Source: Myxococcota bacterium
GTDB lineage: Bacteria > Myxococcota_A > UBA9160 > SZUA-336
Direction of reading: 5' to 3'
NCBI GenBank assembly: GCA_965247115.1
Contig: CBDFGR010000003.1
Span: 352,001 to 416,000, forward strand
Length of the DNA stretch: 64,000 bases
A program made the position numbers and the translations under genes. Of this stretch, positions 36,255-46,598 are shown in pieces. Position 1 is the first letter of the stretch. The number at the start of each line of letters is the position of its first letter. A model generated the notes under the pieces. That model was not told the DNA's origin and searched no databases. It saw only the letters and a list, made by a program, of their open reading frames with translations.

Positions 36255-37154
36255 ATGCAAATCGAGAAAATCGAGTTTCCCAGCGGCCCAGGCCGCTGCG
36301 CCGGCGACCTCTACCTCCCGGACAACGGCGGAAGTGGACAACCGGCCATCGTGATCGGACACGGCTTCAGCTTCGTCAAAGAAGCGCTCGGCGAGGAGGG
36401 AAAGCGCTTCTCGGAGGCGGGGTTCGTCACCCTGGCCATCGACTACCGCAGCTTCGGCGAAAGTCCCGGCGAGCCCCGCGGACAGCTCTTCCCGCTGAAC
36501 CAGGTCGAGGACTATCGCAACGCGATCAGCTACCTCGAGACCCGGGACGAGGTCGATTCCGACCGCATCGGGATCTGGGGGACGAGCTTTGGTGGCGCGA
36601 CGGTGATCTACACCGGCGGCGTCGAGCTCCGCGCCAAAGCGGTGGTGGCCCAGGTCCCGGTGGTGAACGGCCGCCGCTGGATGCAGGCCCTTCGCGTCAG
36701 CGACACATGGATCGAGCTGCAGAACGCGTTGGTCGAGGATCGCCGCGAGCGGTTCCGGAGCGGCAAGGGCGCACGCGTACGCGCCGCCCGCCTCCCGTCC
36801 GACGGCGAGGTGTGCGCGATGCAGGTGGATAGCCAGATCATGGGGTTCCTCGAGGAAGCCCAGAAGAACCTCAAGACCTGGCGGCCGGACATCACGCTCG
36901 AGTCCGTCGAGAAGGTGATCGAATTCGTTCCCGAAAGCGTGATCCACCAGATCGCGCCTCGTCCGCTGCTGATCGTCGCGACGGCGGGGTACGACATGAT
37001 CCACCCGATGGACCAGCTGCTCGAGGCCTACCAGAAGGCCCAGGAACCCAAGCGCCTTGCGCTGCTTCCCTACGATCAAACCGGACTCTACTCGGATCCG
37101 GGGCTAGGCGAAGCGATGGGTGAAGCCATCGGGTGGTTCCAGAAGTACCTGTAG
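36255..37154 (+). CDS. Alpha/beta hydrolase, copy 1
   Basis: HGF, DYRSFGES, WGTSFGG. Confidence 0.9.
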   Translation: MQIEKIEFPSGPGRCAGDLYLPDNGGSGQPAIVIGHGFSFVKEALGEEGKRFSEAGFVTLAIDYRSFGESPGEPRGQLFPLNQVEDYRNAISYLETRDEVDSDRIGIWGTSFGGATVIYTGGVELRAKAVVAQVPVVNGRRWMQALRVSDTWIELQNALVEDRRERFRSGKGARVRAARLPSDGEVCAMQVDSQIMGFLEEAQKNLKTWRPDITLESVEKVIEFVPESVIHQIAPRPLLIVATAGYDMIHPMDQLLEAYQKAQEPKRLALLPYDQTGLYSDPGLGEAMGEAIGWFQKYL

Positions 37155-37261: not shown

Positions 37262-38440
37262 ATGCCTATCACCGCCGACGAGCTGCTCACCAGCGACGGC
37301 CTGTATCCGCGCTTCAGCGACGCGGAGTTCAGCCGGCGCCACGCCGCTGCCCGCAAACAGATGGAGCAGCACGACGTCGATGCCATAATCACCTACGGCC
37401 ACACGTTCCTGCACAACGAGATCCAGTGGATGTGCAACTGGGAGACCTCCTGGGAGGGTGCCCTCGTCTTCCCTGGCGAAGGCGATCCCACGCTCTTCGT
37501 CCATTTCTACAACCACATTCCGCTGGCCCGCAGGCTCTCCATCTTCCCTGACATCCGCTGGTTCGGCGCCGACCTAGGGCAGGGGATCGCCGACGCTCTG
37601 GACGAGAAGCGGCAGCGGCCTCGGCGGATCGGGGTCGCGGGTCCCATTACGCACGAGCGCTGGTGCAACATCGACGCCGCCCTCCCCAATGTCGAGCTGG
37701 TCGACTTCACCGCCGAGATGGCGGATCTGCGCCTGATCAAGAGCGATGAGGAGATCGCCATCCTGCAACGCGCCGCAGAGTTGACCGACCGAACCGTGCA
37801 GGCGCTGGAGCGGGAGGTCCAGCCGGGCATGACCGAGCACAAGCTGACCGAGATCGTTCAGGCGTCCTATCTCGAGCACGGCGGGCGCAACCTCATTCAC
37901 TACATGGGATCCACGCCCATGCGCGACCCCCAGGTGCCCGTACCCGCGCAGTGGCAGTCGAACCGGGTCCTGCAGAAGGGCGACGTGCTGATCACGGAGA
38001 TCAGCACGCTTTATCACGGCTACTGGGCGCAGGTCCTCCGTCCGTTCACGATCGGGGAACCCCCAACCCCCGAGTACCAGCATATCTACGACGTGGCCGA
38101 GGAGATCTTCCGGCGCTGCTGCGCCACGATTCGGCCCGGTGCCACCGTCGAAGACGTGCTGGACCAGGTCCAGTACCTGCACGATCAGGGGTACACGATC
38201 CGGGACGAGATCGTGCACGGCTTCATGGGCACCTGGACTCCGATGGTCCGCACCCGGGATACCAATCCCAAGCCGCACCCGCCGTACACGTTCGTGGAGG
38301 GCCAGACGGTCGTGATACAGCCGGCCATCGTCACCGAAGACGACACTCGCGGCGTGCAGGTGGGCGAGGCGGTTCGTGTCACCGCGACGGGGGTCGAGTC
38401 ATTTCACCACTACCCGCTGCGCTTCACGCAAATCGGCTGA
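37262..38440 (+). CDS. M24 (pita-bread) family hydrolase with a non-canonical metal site
   Basis: FSDAEFSRR, RLIKSDEEI, HG motif; ligand positions altered. Confidence 0.85.
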   Translation: MPITADELLTSDGLYPRFSDAEFSRRHAAARKQMEQHDVDAIITYGHTFLHNEIQWMCNWETSWEGALVFPGEGDPTLFVHFYNHIPLARRLSIFPDIRWFGADLGQGIADALDEKRQRPRRIGVAGPITHERWCNIDAALPNVELVDFTAEMADLRLIKSDEEIAILQRAAELTDRTVQALEREVQPGMTEHKLTEIVQASYLEHGGRNLIHYMGSTPMRDPQVPVPAQWQSNRVLQKGDVLITEISTLYHGYWAQVLRPFTIGEPPTPEYQHIYDVAEEIFRRCCATIRPGATVEDVLDQVQYLHDQGYTIRDEIVHGFMGTWTPMVRTRDTNPKPHPPYTFVEGQTVVIQPAIVTEDDTRGVQVGEAVRVTATGVESFHHYPLRFTQIG

Positions 38441-38477
38441 GCCTGCGACCACGACGGCTCACCCGTCAGAGATCCGG

Positions 38478-39356
38478 GTGCTCTTCCGCCAGCGATTGAT
38501 TCTCGCCCTGTTGGATCGGGCGGGTCGTCCCGTGCTGTCCACGGTATTGGTGAAGCTGGCGTTTCTGTTGCGGAAGGAGACCTCGGTTGGCAGTGATCCT
38601 ACCTTCTACAGCTTCGTTCCGTACCGCCATGGTCCGTTCTCCTTTGCGCTTGATCGTGAGCTGACCTCGCTCGAGCGCGTTGGCTATGTGCAAGGCTTGG
38701 AGAAGAGCCTGTCCCTCAACCCGGATACGTCCCACTTCGCGCGCGATGAGATCGCCCGGCTCAGCACGGCTCAAGTGGAAGCTGCGGATGAAGTGGTCGC
38801 CAAGTACGGGCGCATGAAACCGACCACGCTGCTTCGGAACGTCTACGAGCGATACCCTTGGTACGCGCAAAACAGCGAGCTTGCGGATTTCGTACCCGAT
38901 GATGTGCCGCGGCCCCCGCTTCGCCGGCCAGCTGCCTACACTGTCGGATACGAGGGGAAGTCGGTGGACAGCTTCTTCAACGACCTGCTGGCCTCGGGGA
39001 TTGGCGCGATCCTCGACGTACGGGCGAATCCGGTTTCCCGCAAGTACGGGTTCGCCAAACGCTCGCTGAGGCAGATCGCGCTGAGCCTGGATCTCGCATA
39101 CCACCACCTCCCAGAACTGGGCATCACCGGCGACCACCGCGCGAAGTTGACTGACTTCGACTCCTACCAGCGGCTTCTCGACAAGTATGAGAAGCGGCTA
39201 CCCAAGCTCACAGCTCACACTCTCCAAGCCGCCGCACTGCTTCGATCCCGGCCTTCAGCACTCCTTTGCGTGGAGAGAGACGTGCGTTGCTGCCACCGCG
39301 GACGCCTGGCAGACCATCTCGCCGAGGAGACCGACCTCGCGGTCGTGCATCTCTAG
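38478..39356 (+). CDS. DUF488-domain protein with an N-terminal wHTH/SocA-like region
   Basis: FVPYRHGPFS; YTVGYEG, DVRANPVSRKYGF, ALLCVERDVRCCHR. Confidence 0.85.
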   Translation: MLFRQRLILALLDRAGRPVLSTVLVKLAFLLRKETSVGSDPTFYSFVPYRHGPFSFALDRELTSLERVGYVQGLEKSLSLNPDTSHFARDEIARLSTAQVEAADEVVAKYGRMKPTTLLRNVYERYPWYAQNSELADFVPDDVPRPPLRRPAAYTVGYEGKSVDSFFNDLLASGIGAILDVRANPVSRKYGFAKRSLRQIALSLDLAYHHLPELGITGDHRAKLTDFDSYQRLLDKYEKRLPKLTAHTLQAAALLRSRPSALLCVERDVRCCHRGRLADHLAEETDLAVVHL

Positions 39357-39452: not shown

Positions 39453-41246
39453 ATGCAAGAGACAGTCGTAAATATGGATGCCGCCCTGAAGGGCATGATC
39501 TACGAGAAGAACGTGCGCATCGACACGCGCGATGGCTCCCATGTGATGGTCAACGTATTCCGGCCCGAGGGGGACGGTAAGTGCCCTGCGCTGCTGGCGG
39601 TGTCGCCGTATGGCAAGGATCTGCACACCAAGGACGGCTTCCCCGAGATCTGGGTCGAGATGCGGGAACACATGCCAAAGCTGGACGAGAAGTCCACGCT
39701 GAGCCTCCACACTTGGGAGAGCAACGATCCGGAGCTCTGGGTGCCGAACGGCTACGCGTGCGTGCGCCTGGACGTAACGGGAGCCGGCAAGTCTCCCGGT
39801 AAGCTCGACTGCTATTCCCCGACCGAAGCGCGGGCGACCTACGACGCCATCGAGTGGGCGGCGGCACAGCCCTGGTGCAACGGCAAGGTCGCACTGATGG
39901 GGATCTCGTACCTGGCCATCATCCAGTGGCGAGTGGCCTCGGAGCAGCCACCGCACCTGACCTGCATCTGTCCCTGGGAAGGCGAGTTCGACTACTACCG
40001 CGAGTGGGCACGCCACGGTGGGATCCTGAGCAACACGTTCTCCGAGCTCTGGTGGCCGACCCAGGTGCTGGCTCTGCAGAACGGGTACGCGGGGAGCCCG
40101 CACCGGGACCTCGACGACGGCGCTCCGATGGGCGGGCCGGTCTCGCTCTCGGATGCAGAGCTGGAGGCCAACCGCATCGACCTGACTCAGGAGTTCCGCG
40201 ATCGCGAGCTGGATGGCCCCTGGTATCGGGAGCGCAGCGGCGACTACGAAAAGATCGTGATCCCGCTTCTGTCTGCAGCGAACTGGGGTGGGTACGGCCT
40301 GCATGGGCGCGGAAACGTCGAGGGCTTCACGCAGAGCGCATCCAAGGAGAAATGGCTGCGGGTGCACGGCGGAAACCACCGCGACGCGTTCTACCTGCCC
40401 GATGGTGAGGGGCTGCAAAAGCAGTTCTTCGACCACTATTTGAAGGGCGAGGACAACGGTTGGGAGAAACGCGCCCCGGTCATGCTGAAGGTCCGCCGCA
40501 TCGACGACACCTTCTTCGAGCGCGACGAGCAGGAGTGGCCGCTGGCGCGGACGCAGTGGACCAAGTGGTACCTCGACGCGGAGTCCGGCAGCATGGGAGC
40601 CCAAGCACCGGCGCAGGAGGGCGTGGGATCGTACCCGGGGATGGGTACCGGCCTGCGCTTCCGCACCGAGCCGCTGGCTCAGGAGACCGAGATCACGGGC
40701 CCGCTGGCGGCCAAGCTGTTCATCTCGTCTGCCAGCGAGGACATGGACATCTTTGCGACCATCTGCGTTTTCGCACCCGATGGGACCGAGGCGACTTTCA
40801 TCGCCTCGGCGGAGCCGAAGGGACCCCTCGCCCAGGGCTGGCTGCGGGCGTCGCATCGCAAGCTGGACACCACGCGCAGCACCGAATGGCGCCCGTGGCA
40901 TACGCACGACACGCTCGAGAAGCTCACCCCGGGTGAGGTCTACGAGGTGGACGTGGAGATCTGGCCGACCTCGCTGGTGGTGCCCGCGGGCTACACGCTA
41001 GAGCTGCGGATCGAGGGCAAGGACTTCGCCCGCTCGGCCGAGGAGCGGGATCCGACCTACGCCCAGATGTCGGCGCGCATGAGCAGCTTTGCGGGCCGAG
41101 ATTGGCCCGAGATCTTCTGCGGCTCCGGCCTGTTCCTTCACAACGATCCCCAGGACCGGCCGCCCGAGGTATTCGGCGCGACTAACAGCGTCCACACGGG
41201 AGGCGCCCACAGCTCCTACTTGCTGGTGCCGGTGATCCCCGGCTAG
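39453..41246 (+). CDS. CocE/NonD family hydrolase, copy 1
   Basis: SPYGK, WCNGKV..GISY, GWLRASHR. Confidence 0.93.
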   Translation: MQETVVNMDAALKGMIYEKNVRIDTRDGSHVMVNVFRPEGDGKCPALLAVSPYGKDLHTKDGFPEIWVEMREHMPKLDEKSTLSLHTWESNDPELWVPNGYACVRLDVTGAGKSPGKLDCYSPTEARATYDAIEWAAAQPWCNGKVALMGISYLAIIQWRVASEQPPHLTCICPWEGEFDYYREWARHGGILSNTFSELWWPTQVLALQNGYAGSPHRDLDDGAPMGGPVSLSDAELEANRIDLTQEFRDRELDGPWYRERSGDYEKIVIPLLSAANWGGYGLHGRGNVEGFTQSASKEKWLRVHGGNHRDAFYLPDGEGLQKQFFDHYLKGEDNGWEKRAPVMLKVRRIDDTFFERDEQEWPLARTQWTKWYLDAESGSMGAQAPAQEGVGSYPGMGTGLRFRTEPLAQETEITGPLAAKLFISSASEDMDIFATICVFAPDGTEATFIASAEPKGPLAQGWLRASHRKLDTTRSTEWRPWHTHDTLEKLTPGEVYEVDVEIWPTSLVVPAGYTLELRIEGKDFARSAEERDPTYAQMSARMSSFAGRDWPEIFCGSGLFLHNDPQDRPPEVFGATNSVHTGGAHSSYLLVPVIPG

Positions 41247-41272: not shown

Positions 41273-42172
41273 ATGCAAATCGAGAAAATCGAGTTTCCGA
41301 GCGGTGATGGTCGCTGCGCGGCCGACCTCTACCTCCCGGAGAACGGCGGAAGCGGACAGCCGGGCGTCGTGATCGGGCACGGCTTCAGCTACGTCAAAGA
41401 GGCGCTCGTCGAGCTGGGACCGCGCTTCGCCGATGCGGGGTTCGTCACCCTGGCCATCGACTATCGCAGCTTCGGCGAGAGTCCGGGTGAGCCCCGCGGA
41501 CAGCTCTTCCCGCTGAACCAGGTCGAGGACTTTCGCAACGCGATCAGCTACCTCGAAACCCGGGACGAGGTCGATCCCGATCGCATCGGGATCTGGGGTA
41601 CGAGCTTTGGTGGCGCGACGGTGATCTACACCGCCGGTGTCGAGCTCCGCGCGAAAGCGGTGGTGGCCCAGGTCCCGGTGGTGAACGGCCGCCTCTGGAT
41701 GAAGGCCCTTCGCGGCAGCGACCAATGGATCGAGCTACAGGACCGGCTGGTCGAGGACCGCCGCGAACGGTTCCGCACCGGCAAGGGCGCACGGGTGCGC
41801 GTTGCCGGCGCCGCGTCGGACGGCGAGTTTGCCACGATGCAGTTGGATCGTCAGCTAATGGCGTTCCTCGAGGAAGGCGAGAAGAACCTCAAGACCTGGC
41901 GGCCGGACATCACGCTCGAATCCGTCGAGAAAGTGATCGAGTTCAACCCCTCGAGCGTGATCCACCAGATCGCGCCGCGTCCGCTGCTGATAGTCACGAC
42001 GGCGGGCCACGACATGATCCACCCGATCGAACAGATACTCGAGGCCTACAACAAGGCCCGCGAGCCCAAGCGCCTCGCGCTGCTTCCCTACGATCAAACT
42101 GGACTCTACGAAGAGCCGGGTCGCTCCGAAGCGGTGGGCGAAGCCATCACGTGGTTCCAGAAGTATCTGTAG
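41273..42172 (+). CDS. Alpha/beta hydrolase, copy 2
   Basis: Same length as copy 1, about 49 differences in 299 aa by hand count. Confidence 0.9.
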   Translation: MQIEKIEFPSGDGRCAADLYLPENGGSGQPGVVIGHGFSYVKEALVELGPRFADAGFVTLAIDYRSFGESPGEPRGQLFPLNQVEDFRNAISYLETRDEVDPDRIGIWGTSFGGATVIYTAGVELRAKAVVAQVPVVNGRLWMKALRGSDQWIELQDRLVEDRRERFRTGKGARVRVAGAASDGEFATMQLDRQLMAFLEEGEKNLKTWRPDITLESVEKVIEFNPSSVIHQIAPRPLLIVTTAGHDMIHPIEQILEAYNKAREPKRLALLPYDQTGLYEEPGRSEAVGEAITWFQKYL

Positions 42173-42264: not shown

Positions 42265-44058
42265 ATGGAAGAGACAGTCGTAAATATGGATGCCGCCCTG
42301 AAGGGCATGATCTACGAGAAGAACGTGCGCATCGACACGCGCGACGGCTCCCACGTGATGGTCAACGTATTCCGGCCCGAGGGGGACGGTCAGTGCCCTG
42401 CCCTGCTGGCGGTGTCGCCGTATGGCAAGGATCTGCACACCAAGGATGGCTTCCCCGAGATCTGGGTCGAGATGCGGGAGCACATGCCAAAGATGGACGA
42501 GAAGTCCACGCTGAGCCTCCACACCTGGGAGAGCAACGATCCGGAGCTCTGGGTGCCGTACGGCTACGCGTGCGTGCGCCTGGACGTAACGGGAGCCGGC
42601 AAATCTCCTGGCAAGCTCGATTGCTATTCCCCGACCGAAGCGCGGGCGACCTACGACGCCATCGAGTGGGCGGCGGAACAGCCCTGGTGCAACGGCAAGG
42701 TTGCACTGATTGGGATCTCGTACCTGGCCATCATCCAGTGGCGAGTGGCCTCGGAGCAGCCACCGCACCTGACCTGCATCTGTCCCTGGGAAGGTGAGTT
42801 CGACTACTACCGCGAGTGGGCACGCCACGGTGGGATCCTGAGCAACACGTTCTCCGAGCTCTGGTGGCCGACCCAGGTGCTGGCGCTGCAGAACGGGTAC
42901 GCGGGCAGCCCGCACCGAGACCTCGACGACGGCGCGCCGATGGGCGGGCCGGTCTCGCTCTCGGATGCAGAGCTGGAGGCCAACCGCATCGACCTGACTC
43001 AGGAGTTCCGCGATCGCGAGCTGGATGGCCCCTGGTATCGGGAGCGCAGCGGCGACTACGAAAAGATCGTGATCCCGCTTCTGTCCGCGGCCAACTGGGG
43101 TGGGTACGGCCTGCACGGGCGCGGAAATGTCGAGGGCTTCACGCAGAGCGCATCCAAGGAGAAGTGGCTGCGGGTGCACGGCGGCAACCACCGCGACGCG
43201 TTCTTCCTGCCCGATGGTGAGGGGCTGCAAAGGCAGTTCTTCGACCATTACTTGAAGGGCGAAGACAACGGCTGGGAGAAGCGGCCCCCGGTCATGCTGA
43301 AGGTCCGCCGCATCGACGACACCTTCTTCGAGCGCGACGAGCAGGAGTGGCCGCTGGCGCGGACGCGGTGGACCAAGTGGTACCTGGATGCGGAGTCCGG
43401 CAGCATGGGAGCCGACGCGCCGGCGCAGGAGGGCGTGGGATCGTACCCTGGCATGGGTACCGGCCTGAGCTTCCGCACCCAGCCGCTGGCCCAGGAGACC
43501 GAGATCACGGGCCCGCTGGCGGCCAAGCTGTTCATCTCGTCTGCCAGCGAAGATATGGACATCTTCGCGACCCTGCGCGTGTTTGCACCCGATGGGAGCG
43601 AGGCGACCTTCATAGCCTCTGTGGAACCGAAGGGACCCTTGGCCCAGGGCTGGCTGCGGGCTTCGCATCGCAAGCTGGACACCTCGCGCACTACCGAGTG
43701 GCGCCCGTGGCACACGCACGACACGCTCGAAAAGCTCACCCCCGGGGAGATCTACGAGGTGGACGTGGAGATCTGGCCGACCTCGCTGGTGGTGCCCGCT
43801 GGCTACACGCTGGAGCTGCTGATCGAGGGCAAGGACTTCGCACGCCCGGCCGAGGAGCGGGATCCGACCTACGCCCAGATGTCGGCGCGCATGAGCAGCT
43901 TTGCGGGCCGAGATTGGCCCGAACTCTTCTGCGGCTGCGGCCTGTTCCTTCACAACGATCCCCAGGACCGCCCGCCCGAGGTATTCGGCGCGACAAACAG
44001 CGTCCACACGGGAGGCGCCCACAGCTCCTACCTGCTGGTACCCGTGATCCCCGGCTAA
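42265..44058 (+). CDS. CocE/NonD family hydrolase, copy 2
   Basis: Same length as copy 1, about 24 differences in 597 aa by hand count. Confidence 0.93.
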   Translation: MEETVVNMDAALKGMIYEKNVRIDTRDGSHVMVNVFRPEGDGQCPALLAVSPYGKDLHTKDGFPEIWVEMREHMPKMDEKSTLSLHTWESNDPELWVPYGYACVRLDVTGAGKSPGKLDCYSPTEARATYDAIEWAAEQPWCNGKVALIGISYLAIIQWRVASEQPPHLTCICPWEGEFDYYREWARHGGILSNTFSELWWPTQVLALQNGYAGSPHRDLDDGAPMGGPVSLSDAELEANRIDLTQEFRDRELDGPWYRERSGDYEKIVIPLLSAANWGGYGLHGRGNVEGFTQSASKEKWLRVHGGNHRDAFFLPDGEGLQRQFFDHYLKGEDNGWEKRPPVMLKVRRIDDTFFERDEQEWPLARTRWTKWYLDAESGSMGADAPAQEGVGSYPGMGTGLSFRTQPLAQETEITGPLAAKLFISSASEDMDIFATLRVFAPDGSEATFIASVEPKGPLAQGWLRASHRKLDTSRTTEWRPWHTHDTLEKLTPGEIYEVDVEIWPTSLVVPAGYTLELLIEGKDFARPAEERDPTYAQMSARMSSFAGRDWPELFCGCGLFLHNDPQDRPPEVFGATNSVHTGGAHSSYLLVPVIPG

Positions 44059-44062
44059 GTCT

Positions 44063-44486
44063 GGGACCTAAAACGGGTTGTTCGCAGGCTTCTAGGAGTC
44101 AGGCAAGGGGAGGTCTGTGTCCGAGGCGCGACGGGGTGAGAAGCCGCTGGCAGCGAATCCCGAGACGACGTAGGGTTCGGTTTCGACTGACACATAAATG
44201 TGTAATAACAAAAGTACTCGAGCATCCCCCGGGGGATGTTGCGTTTCGCAGATTTCTTGCGAAAAAAACGCGAGAGCCCCTTGACAGGTTTTTGAAAACA
44301 GAACAAAGCCGGCTGAATTCTGGACCACACCGACCTCCCTCGACGTCGCCTCTGCTGTCTGCACCTCGTTCTCCCGGATTCCGCTCTCAAAGACCCTTGC
44401 GCATTCGATCGCCCCACTTGATGCATCCTCTGAGATAAAAAAACGGCGTGCTACTGTTCGGGCCTGACTCCTACTCGGTCCCGAAC
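44063..44486. ncRNA. Candidate structured non-coding RNA upstream of the HNH gene
   Basis: Nested complementary segments 44063-68/44477-82, 44093-104/44462-73 (12 bp perfect), 44103-09/44394-400, 44108-15/44332-39, plus internal hairpins. Confidence 0.45.
44221..44240. repeat. 20-bp palindromic repeat, copy 1
   Basis: AGCATCCCCCGGGGGATGTT; 19/20 match to 45530-45549. Confidence 0.85.
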
Positions 44487-44497
44487 GAGACGACAAT

Positions 44498-45571
44498 ATG
44501 AAAGGTTCACTCAAGTCCGTTACTGACGACAAGCTGCTCCGCGGACTCGACGAACTCGTTGCGAAGAATCGCCACAACGAGGCAGATCTGCTCGCGTACA
44601 TTGCAGAGGTCGATCACCGCAAGCTCTATCTCGACCAGGCCTGCTCGTCCATGTTTGGCTACTGCACGGAGGTGCTCCACTTCTCGGAGGCGCAGGCCAG
44701 TCACCGCATCCACGCCGCGCGAGCCGCGCGTGCCTATCCCGTCGTGTTTGAGAAGATTCGCAAAGGGGAGCTCCACGTGGCGGGACTGTGCTTGCTCGCC
44801 CCCGTGCTCACCCCGGAGAACCACGAGGAGCTGCTCGAGCTGGCGCGCCACAGAAGCAAGCGTGCGATCGAGGTGCTCCTGGCGGACCGCGCTCCGAAGC
44901 CGGACGCCCTGGCACGGGTGCGGCAGCTTCCCGGGCCCAGGCCGGCCCCCGCTGTCGGGCTGCCCTCGGAGATGGCCAGGTCCACGCCCGAGACAGAGAC
45001 CCGGAGTCGCACCCCGGCTCCGCCGCAGCGGGCATCACGTCCTGCGGCGAGCCCGCTGGGCGGCAAGCGCTACAAGATCGAGTTCACGGCCAGCCAGGCG
45101 CTCTACGACAAGTTTCATGAGGCGCGGGCGCTGATTCGCCACCAGATTCCGGATGGTGACATGGGGGAGATCTTCGACCGCGCGCTGACGCTGCTGGTCG
45201 AGGACGCGAAGCGGAAGAAGTTCGCGCAGACGTCGAGTCCCCGGAAGCGGTCGAAGGCTGCGCAGAAGACCGGAGTTCCGTCTCGCCACATTCCGGCGGA
45301 GATCAAGCGGGCCGTCTTCGAGCGAGACGGGGGTCGGTGTGCGTTCGTCGGACGAAGCGGTCGCCGCTGCGGCTCGCCCGACTTCGTGGAATATCACCAC
45401 CTCGACCCCTGGGCCAAGGCAAAGCGGCACTCCGTGGAGCGGATCGAGCTTCGCTGCCGCGGGCACAATCACTACGCGGCCGTGCAGGACTACGGGGCTG
45501 CGTACATGGCGCGGTTCGCGAGGCGGGACAGCATCCCCCGGGGGACGTTCGGTGTCGAGCAGCGGGAGTGA
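44498..45571 (+). CDS. DUF222-like domain + C-terminal HNH endonuclease
   Basis: LLAYIAEVDHRKLY...SSMFGYCTEVLHFSE N-domain; SRHIPAEIKRAVFERDGGRC..C..EYHH..W...LRCRGHN. Confidence 0.9.
   Translation: MKGSLKSVTDDKLLRGLDELVAKNRHNEADLLAYIAEVDHRKLYLDQACSSMFGYCTEVLHFSEAQASHRIHAARAARAYPVVFEKIRKGELHVAGLCLLAPVLTPENHEELLELARHRSKRAIEVLLADRAPKPDALARVRQLPGPRPAPAVGLPSEMARSTPETETRSRTPAPPQRASRPAASPLGGKRYKIEFTASQALYDKFHEARALIRHQIPDGDMGEIFDRALTLLVEDAKRKKFAQTSSPRKRSKAAQKTGVPSRHIPAEIKRAVFERDGGRCAFVGRSGRRCGSPDFVEYHHLDPWAKAKRHSVERIELRCRGHNHYAAVQDYGAAYMARFARRDSIPRGTFGVEQRE
45530..45549. repeat. 20-bp palindromic repeat, copy 2 (inside the 3' end of the HNH gene)
   Basis: AGCATCCCCCGGGGGACGTT. Confidence 0.85.
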
Positions 45572-45619
45572 CTCGACTCGATCCCCTGGAGTGTTGAAAC
45601 GTGCTTAGATCCCACAGTG

Positions 45620-45658
45620 GTGATCCCTCAGGAGAGTAACAACGTCCTGAGGGGTCAC
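45620..45658. terminator. Strong hairpin between convergent genes
   Basis: GTGATCCCTCAGGA-N11-TCCTGAGGGGTCAC, 14 bp with one G-U pair; no U-tract. Confidence 0.5.
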
Positions 45659-45677
45659 AGCCAGGCCAGGTCGTCGT

Positions 45678-46598
45678 CTAGGCGTACGGATCGATCAGGT
45701 GCTCGACGAGGAACTTCTTGCCTTCCTGAGCGAGCATTTCCAGGCGCGACAGGTCGCTGTAGAGCGTCATGTGGGTGGCGTCGCGACACAGGAACATGCG
45801 CTTCACCGGATTGGGGATCAGGTTGAAGACCGCCAGCTCTTCGTCCCACAGGGTGATGTCGTCCCCCTCAGCGATGCCCATGAACACCGGCTTGTCGAGG
45901 ATCCGCGGTAGGTACGGCCTGACGTCGTACTTCATCAGCAGCTCGGTCGACGCGATGGTCGTGCGGTGCTCGTGGTTGGGGGCCACGGTCTCCTTGAAGG
46001 TCCGGAAGCCGCTGGTCACCTCCGGGAAAGGCCAGGTCGACAGCTCCTGGGACGGATTCTCGCTCGACATCGGAATGTAGCCGTGCTCGCCCTTCTCGAG
46101 CCGCCTGCGGCGATCGTCGAGGATCAGCTGCTCGAGCTCGCGGAACGCCACCGCGCTGTGCACCTGCTTCATGTTCAGGTAGCCGTCCACCACCGGGATG
46201 TTGGAGACGATGCACTTCACCCGGGGATCGGTGGCGCCCACGATCAGCACGTGGCCGCCGGAATACGAGATGCCCCAGATGCCGATGCGGTCGCTGTTGA
46301 GCTCGCCGCGCGTCTCCGCGTACGAGATCGCATTGTGGTAGTCCTCGATTTGATCCCAGGGATCCAGGTGCTGGCGCGGCTCGCCGTCGCTGGTGCCCAG
46401 GCGCCGATAGTCAAAGACCAGCGCGGCAAGGCCCGCGCTCGTGAAGGCCTTGGCGTACTCGGGCTGCACCAGCTCCTTCACGTAGCACCAGCCCCCTGCC
46501 ATCACGACCACCGGGTACGGCGCGCGACCGTGCTCGGGCAGGTAGAGGTGGGCACGGATCGTTTCCCCCTCGCTCTTGAACTCGACGTCTTGCGGCAT
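45678..46598 (-). CDS. Alpha/beta hydrolase (same broad family as 36255 and 41273)
   Basis: FDYRRLGTS, WGISYSGG, GDD, ATHMTLY. Confidence 0.9.
   Translation of the reverse strand: MPQDVEFKSEGETIRAHLYLPEHGRAPYPVVVMAGGWCYVKELVQPEYAKAFTSAGLAALVFDYRRLGTSDGEPRQHLDPWDQIEDYHNAISYAETRGELNSDRIGIWGISYSGGHVLIVGATDPRVKCIVSNIPVVDGYLNMKQVHSAVAFRELEQLILDDRRRRLEKGEHGYIPMSSENPSQELSTWPFPEVTSGFRTFKETVAPNHEHRTTIASTELLMKYDVRPYLPRILDKPVFMGIAEGDDITLWDEELAVFNLIPNPVKRMFLCRDATHMTLYSDLSRLEMLAQEGKKFLVEHLIDPYA

Follow-up and report, generated by a model that had tools for sequence, protein, structure and literature searches.

A multicopy HNH nuclease gene between matched palindromes in a Myxococcota genome, with a promoter-like leader of fixed geometry

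The locus and its copies

The window analysed here is a 64,000-nucleotide stretch of a Myxococcota bacterium genome. It contains a catabolic gene cluster with a 357-aa open reading frame (ORF), flanked by a peptidase-S15-family gene on one side and a convergent alpha/beta hydrolase gene on the other (Table 1). An earlier note on this DNA had described the gene, about 440 bp of non-coding DNA upstream of it (439 bp as measured) and a copy of the upstream palindrome at its 3' end. All three are present, and the two palindromes are identical at 19 of 20 positions. Also found were a 9/10 inverted match between 44062-71 and 45605-14, which is 10/10 in the orthologue from a sister genome, and a strong downstream hairpin (-28.1 kcal/mol). 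The match had been placed near the putative ends of an element, but neither it nor the hairpin is an element end; comparison of copies puts the left edge at the left palindrome, where inter-copy homology starts, and not at 44062. By BLAST, the genome has a single copy of the hairpin and of the 160-bp stretch to the left of the palindrome, and neither is present in the gene-less allele described below; the last ~40 bp of the left stretch also resemble one solo palindrome site. The surrounding cluster includes tandem duplicates of peptidase-S15-family genes (window 39453-41246 and 42265-44058) and of alpha/beta hydrolase genes (36255-37154 and 41273-42172), and a gene fusing a SocA-like part (weak match) to DUF488 breaks into it at 38376-39356.

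Table 1. Features of the nuclease locus, in window coordinates
Feature	Position	Strand	Remarks
Locus-specific left extension holding TGGGACCTAA	44059..44220	.	Differs between sister genomes; missing from gene-less allele; not core element
Left 20-bp palindrome	44221..44240	.	Centre CCC/GGG between 44230 and 44231; left edge of inter-copy homology
T/A-tract, then TTGACA (44281-44286) and GGTTTT	44252..44292	+	-35-like half; no -10 at normal distance
Fixed-length 165-bp spacer	44287..44451	+	Poor sequence conservation and no common fold; AT profile matches that of IS66 leaders in phase
Gene-proximal promoter-like half	44430..44457	+	Weak -35 position, A-tract, TG at 44449-50, -10-like TACTGT at 44452-44457; consensus match only
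357-aa ORF	44498..45571	+	HTH about aa 23-134, linker, ribbon-helix-helix-like about 192-240, HNH about 254-333
Right palindrome	45530..45549	.	Within last ORF codons; 1309 bp centre to centre from left palindrome
Tail, about 25 nt	45550..45574	+	Alike among copies at different loci; retained in gene-less allele
Strong single-copy hairpin between convergent genes	45617..45661	.	Not element end

The gene had been called lone, a description that does not hold, as its source genome (G000, 5.17 Mb) contains 14 dispersed family loci with 52-74% protein identity, several of them broken or interrupted. Upstream homology between copies sets in abruptly at a palindrome, which in most of them lies about 236-281 bp ahead of the start codon. 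A palindrome centred on CCCGGG is found on the left side of 12 of the 14 copies and on the right side of nine, the remainder being degenerate or missing. Perfect CCCGGG-centred 20-mers occur 14 times in the genome, and their recurrence is beyond chance because 10 of them sit at family loci; two others are solo and two flank a 1.6-kb cargo. The inner letters of the palindromes vary from copy to copy, yet left and right agree within a copy. Identity between a copy's own left and right palindromes was 15.7/20 as against 13.2 when permuted, and none of 20,000 permutations was as good (11 pairs, with one mis-picked pair retained). For seven of the eight palindrome base pairs, either no more than one of the 10 leaders breaks the pair or both sides have changed, so that symmetry is kept. 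Other families in the phylum have a different palindrome core that is likewise matched left to right, and many family loci have no clear palindrome pair.

The wider family comprises 18,057 clusters at 50% identity (E<=0.001), and Bdellovibrionales and Planctomycetota records have the same cassette layout. The plasmid and phage collections searched gave no family match, and two family loci were found in a metagenome scan. The cargo in G000 (G000:C3:1479385-1481021) consists of 1.6 kb of small genes with no HNH gene between two perfect family-type palindromes. By eye, we take these genes to be toxin-antitoxin-like pairs and a transposase fragment, and the whole is possibly a cargo-carrying non-autonomous unit. 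One solo palindrome (G000:C2:490976-491045) is of the window's variant, has left-end-like flanks and lies shortly after a stop codon.

The predicted protein

In an AlphaFold2 model (mean pLDDT 89), the window protein appears as a ParB-like helix-turn-helix (HTH) domain followed by ribbon-helix-helix (RHH) and HNH domains. Residues 23-134 align to the DNA-binding domains of ParB, KorB and Spo0J (Z 6.7-7.3), residues 192-240 to RHH-type domains (TraM Z 5.1, NikR 4.4) and residues 254-333 to HNH nucleases (Z 6.3-6.8), every score being below 8, a range in which, according to the tool, a match may be just a common arrangement. A Foldseek search with the model returned nothing at E<=0.001, a sequence search of the PDB gave weak HNH matches (E 0.15-0.77), and a Pfam scan of the window protein found no family at E<=0.1. 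Among 24 aligned members of the family, HNH (PF01844) was matched in 13 and DUF222 in two, and weak DUF222 matches occur in 4 of 84 longer homologues. Of the label "DUF222-like" HNH nuclease given earlier, the HNH part is thus sound; the DUF222 part finds no match in the window protein and is only indirect, through the few weak matches of its homologues. Neither the HUH (Y1) transposase of REPtrons and IS200/IS605 nor the DEDD RuvC-like recombinase of IS110 has a Pfam match in the window protein, the 24 aligned members or the 84 longer homologues.

Across 150 homologues, His301 is shared by 149, Asn324 by 145 and the zinc ligands by 147-150. At position 315, Asn predominates (98 homologues), ahead of Gly (22) and Arg (14); the window protein has Arg, as the earlier note had suspected in stating that the usual HNH Asn appears to be Arg. 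The available text of one source describes this Asn as orienting the catalytic His (PMC3592412), so altered activity is possible with Arg at 315. The further suggestion that this copy is attenuated fits poorly, since all 11 clade copies tested have Arg or Gly at 315 and keep His301, Asn324 and the four zinc ligands. The HNH region also has the lowest dN/dS of four regions (0.11 when compared with the orthologue, 0.16 among 10 paralogues), a sign of strong purifying selection, and these comparisons do not indicate copy-specific decay of the domain.

Eight of the 84 longer homologues (P0153, P0221, P0254 and five others; three over the cut-off) carry a RuvA C-terminal-like domain after the HNH domain, hinting at RuvB recruitment. 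The window protein has no RuvA_C domain.

Described relatives include the REP13E12 repeats of mycobacteria, units of about 1.3-1.4 kb that carry DUF222-HNH genes (PF02720 and PF01844). Both are multicopy stand-alone genes with a helical N-terminus and a C-terminal HNH domain, and the window family, at 1309 bp centre to centre, is of similar length; the two differ in the DUF222 matches described above. In the available text of PMC10589994, the REP13E12 family is listed only as a repetitive element. Within our partial coverage of the literature, no mechanism has been published for the family and the element's ends are not described; nor are palindromic ends, a hybrid scar, inversion or a split promoter described for REP13E12.

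The leader

The non-coding DNA upstream of the gene had been read as a nested multi-stem structure, possibly a cis-encoded RNA. The 439-nt region folds at -149.9 kcal/mol, which 23 of 100 shuffles equalled (z -0.82 on the forward and +0.97 on the reverse strand), and an Rfam search of it gave no match. For 45 of 54 leaders in four groups, mean folding z on both strands ranged from +0.40 to -0.66. Alignment folds had a structure conservation index of 0.03-0.27, a level that 1-15 of 25 column shuffles reached as well, and the sole strong covarying helix among 10 leaders was the palindrome itself. The covariation check proposed earlier therefore found no conserved structure beyond the palindrome. 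An end-pairing stem was also considered and dropped, as the own-pair duplex beat cross-clade pairs in just 23 of 54. The upstream region probably works as DNA and not as RNA, and the RNA reading is rejected at the level of these tools.

What the leaders do share is a set of promoter-like parts. An A/T tract is followed by TTGAC(A/G), which lacks a -10 at normal distance; an extended -10 with a weak -35 lies close to the gene. A sigma70 scan found no normally spaced promoter, and the T/A-tract-TTGACA motif scores highly in G000 at family copies only. The best -10 anywhere downstream of TTGAC is 162-169 bp away in 52 of 54 leaders and 176 bp away in the other two, while its distance to the predicted start varies from 14 to 77; these leaders were picked for a TTGAC 150-290 bp before the start and are non-independent, 12 coming from G000 and 19 from the distant relative G141. 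Eight of 28 phylum loci have no TTGAC in range. Sigma70 promoters need a spacer of 16-18 bp, and one orthologous pair of copies has a collapsed form with TTGACA 16 bp from the -10. Subtracting 17 from about 165 leaves 148 bp, or 14 helical turns, and the 176 class has one turn more. Dyad symmetry in the spacer was weak (best r 0.36) and off-centre, and was rejected as a feature.

Outside the phylum, the same arrangement turned up when GTDB genomes were scanned for the motif pair at gaps of 151-181. The scan gave at least 115 stretches and, among the matches listed, 30 had a gap of 166, with 0-6 at each other gap. All nine listed matches that precede family genes have gaps of 165-168; four duplicate leaders already in the set and five are new (Chitinivibrionia, Planctomycetota, two Bdellovibrionales and one unclassified). 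When two of these genomes were searched under relaxed settings, the gap was 166-167 for 7 of 7 matches ahead of family genes; five were new, and palindromes or half-site arrays lay upstream of them. IS66-family elements account for most of the other listed matches at 166-167, which fall at their left ends and come from records of Nitrosomonas, Desulfospira, Desulfobacterium, Desulfobacula, Nitrospiria and Gammaproteobacteria; DDE_Tnp_IS66 was confirmed by Pfam for two of the proteins, and the single-ORF elements are presumably ISBst12-like. In the scan of the phylum itself, 7 of 301 genomes matched, including four single matches (gaps 153, 164, 180 and 181) with no family gene behind them. A peak in a viral scan (9 of 14 matches at gap 167) came from one phage coding region before a helicase-like gene and was set aside as chance; it illustrates that a single lineage can fake a peak. 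Six IS66 copies in one genome (L151, L176, L189, L198, L218 and L257), four of them near-identical over 1.7 kb, have TTGACA and TGTTATAAT 166 bp apart.

IS66 leaders thus have the same order of A-tract, TTGACA, T-tract, 166-167 bp, A-tract and TG-TATAAT-like element, in front of an unrelated DDE_Tnp_IS66 enzyme and within terminal inverted repeats. Their spacers are nearly as unlike those of the HNH family in sequence as shuffled ones (26% identity vs 24%). The correlation between the two AT profiles peaks at lag 0 (r=0.50, rank 1 of 134; rank 9 of 134 for the window's own spacer). Each set has a phase-coherent AT/GC period of 9.5-10 bp. With Myxococcota-type leaders alone, the evidence for periodicity was equivocal: SS gave p=0.003 and W p=0.03, and the remaining four measures did not reach significance. 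After IS66 and other phyla were added the result was clearer, with circular-shift p values for spacer A/T content of 0.007 for IS66 and 0.013 for HNH spacers in reduced lineage sets against 0.53 for 63 other-gap controls, six or three measures having been tried each time. Our partial coverage of the literature gave no account of a fixed-gap promoter-like layout or of an in-phase ~10-bp AT pattern, and the leader feature may be categorically new.

A tentative explanation, for which we would give clearly less than even odds, is that two unrelated mobile families, spread over six or more phyla, rely on a split sigma70 promoter. Its halves, about 166 bp apart across a phased, wrappable spacer, would cooperate only when looping, wrapping or deletion takes up ~149 bp (14 helical turns), as might happen in an excised or supercoiled intermediate, and the HNH cassette would move transposase-free by self-directed cutting at the centre of its palindromes. 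This fixed-gap pair is the larger surprise of the analysis, in that two unrelated element families keep its halves 162-169 bp from each other. Cooperation between the halves would amount to a new mode of mobile-element gene control by DNA geometry; if there is none, the layout still marks a host-factor complex common to these elements.

Mobility and its explanations

Empty sites in related genomes, a check suggested earlier, were found both with and without a palindrome. When six G000 copies were looked for in the sister genome G002, none was at the orthologous site. At three of these sites the flanks close up to 25-135 bp; two of the three have no palindrome, and the third has a solo palindrome that belongs to another variant. 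Two more sites are occupied by 2.1 kb of other DNA, and at the last the right flank alone was seen. As two of the three short sites have no palindrome, integration at palindromes does not account for all entries. Five other sites, the window's included, are common to G000 and G002, so these insertions are old, and together with the divergence among paralogues this speaks against a recent jump in G000. At one common site, the gene is inverted relative to its flanks, with a breakpoint at a palindrome. In addition, a solo hybrid palindrome in G000 joins a left-type left arm to a right-end tail, and its G002 counterpart is the right end of a full copy.

A gene-less allele of the window locus was found in three of four sequencing runs (X5, X6 and X8, from three studies; run X1 was without it). 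It has the same gene pair, no nuclease gene and a single palindrome made of the left-end arm and the right-end arm and tail, with contig junctions from 44057 to 45532 (12 letters between) and from 45574 to 45680. Support amounts to one contig per run at a depth of about 5, with 43 letters on the short side and 85% likeness, and the upstream gene has a tandem paralogue of 94% identity. The allele would be an excision scar and not an ancestral target, because its tail resembles those of copies at unrelated loci. In the distant relative G141, the 19 loci examined carry tandem arrays of hybrid arms joined at the CCC/GGG centre. The arrays at the two ends are reverse complements of each other and have inverted repeats on their outer side, and a gene-less cluster (L138) is built of the same parts. 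In G010, the palindrome forms part of ~38-bp terminal direct repeats in two copies, and five have upstream DNA without a left palindrome.

The reading we favour, at a probability of roughly 0.55, is that of a ~1.3-kb selfish DNA cassette ended by two directly repeated, self-symmetric 20-bp sites, whose nuclease recognises and cuts its own palindromes and whose leader serves as DNA control. The protein would dimerise through its RHH domain and bind the terminal palindromes through its ParB-like HTH domain, and the HNH domain would nick or cut at or near the symmetric centre. Host repair could then join left arm to right arm, so that the cassette is freed with one palindrome left behind, or is flipped. 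The -35-like and extended -10-like halves, about 165 bp apart across a phased and probably bendable spacer, would most likely exert a geometry-dependent control that holds expression low. Comparison between copies and genomes supplies the basis, namely the multiple copies, matched ends, presence and absence, gene-less hybrid allele, inversion and arm exchange in G141; from these we infer dimer binding at the palindromes, central cutting, host-mediated joining and geometry-dependent promoter control. The earlier idea of a mobile or selfish nuclease element is supported by the same comparison, and the hybrid palindrome and the inversion breakpoint agree with its proposal that the palindrome specifies the site. 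Against this reading, deletion between 20-bp direct repeats is possible without any protein.

That objection leads to the strongest competitor, to which we would give perhaps half the weight of the cassette reading. The palindromes could be mere operators or docking sites, scars and inversions could arise passively by host recombination or slippage, and the enzyme of another element could move the cassette. ParB-type HTH and RHH domains are classic palindrome binders and both were matched by fold here, no transposase or recombinase fold was found in the window protein, the leader is common to IS66 elements, and two empty sites have no palindrome. In G285, moreover, the gene sits within a larger unit bearing a transposase-like fragment, which we take to be of ISAs1 type. 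However, arms are exchanged at the palindrome centre in both the G141 arrays and the gene-less allele, and the window region has no companion transposase. Inner positions that vary while remaining symmetric and matched from left to right also argue against a plain operator, which needs neither property.

Alternatively, though improbably, the gene may encode a host-beneficial or addiction-type nuclease, induced by stress or the SOS response and spread by duplication and horizontal transfer, with palindromes and leader being regulatory only. Old copies are under strong purifying selection, and all 19 G141 leaders tested have a near-match (0-2 mismatches) to the SOS box of M. xanthus, as given in the available text of PMC9705874. 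The G000 leaders match this box poorly (2-4 mismatches); DNA upstream of lexA or recA yielded no box for G000 itself. Distribution is also patchy (at least 26 of 301 phylum genomes and 6 of 31 relatives), gene-less derivative clusters such as L138 exist, and no same-strand partner gene common to the copies was found. Least of all do we expect a cis-encoded structured RNA acting as guide or helper to the nuclease, in the manner of IscB-omegaRNA or IS110 bridge RNA systems. In its favour are a near-constant leader of RNA-gene size and an HNH domain that aligns to that of IscB (Z 5.2-5.7), as to many HNH proteins. Against it, the leaders showed no excess or conserved folding, no end-pairing stem, no Rfam match and no -10 at normal spacing after TTGACA, and the same layout stands ahead of unrelated IS66 transposases.

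Among known systems, the element is closest to the REPtron in layout and to ParB-parS in recognition, and it is related to the DUF222-HNH (REP13E12) repeats. REPtrons combine a RAYT (TnpA-REP) gene with REP, REPIN or BIME repeats; as in the cassette, short palindromes lie on both sides of a single gene, and tandem arrays and gene-less clusters occur, here in G141. The enzyme of the REPtron is an HUH tyrosine transposase, in contrast to the HNH enzyme here, and the present palindromes stay near the family genes, with two solo sites and one cargo-flanking pair as the exceptions among the 14 perfect sites of G000. ParB-parS, Noc-NBS and KorB-OB resemble the element in the aligned DNA-binding domain and the short palindromic site. 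Unlike in ParB-parS, the aligned ranges include no ParB CTPase domain, the HTH domain is fused to RHH and HNH domains, and the sites bracket the gene and differ in sequence from copy to copy. IscB-omegaRNA (OMEGA/HEARO) and IS110 bridge RNA systems pair mobile nuclease or recombinase genes with non-coding RNA; the likeness lies in a mobile nuclease gene with a non-coding leader and, for IscB, in the HNH domain. Here no RuvC-like or recombinase domain was matched and no conserved RNA structure was found. The IscB alignment covers residues 267-333, the rest being taken up by the modelled domains, although a fold not listed among the matches is possible. The element is probably not of IscB type, and it is neither IS110 nor IS200/IS605. 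Since the locus offers cognate palindromes and predicted products (a hybrid scar and an inversion), it turns the old question of DUF222/13E12-like HNH proteins into a simple assay.

Other repeats and mobile DNA adjoin several copies. An insertion sequence of ~1.29 kb, found at 30 or more sites in G000, interrupts one family copy there, and a relative of it adjoins three copies in G002. A ~100-bp repeat upstream of one copy (L017:2950-3053) has more than 30 matches in G002 and is unrelated to the element ends. Directly upstream of three leaders (L073 and L090 in G285, and L048 at G002:C22), we recognised by eye a sequence that looks like the 3' end of a group II intron or a reverse-transcriptase fragment. 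Many near-identical copies in G285 (L093-L108) belong to a unit of ~2.9 kb that has 51-bp inverted repeats and carries the transposase-like fragment, a pattern that suggests recent spread by another route.
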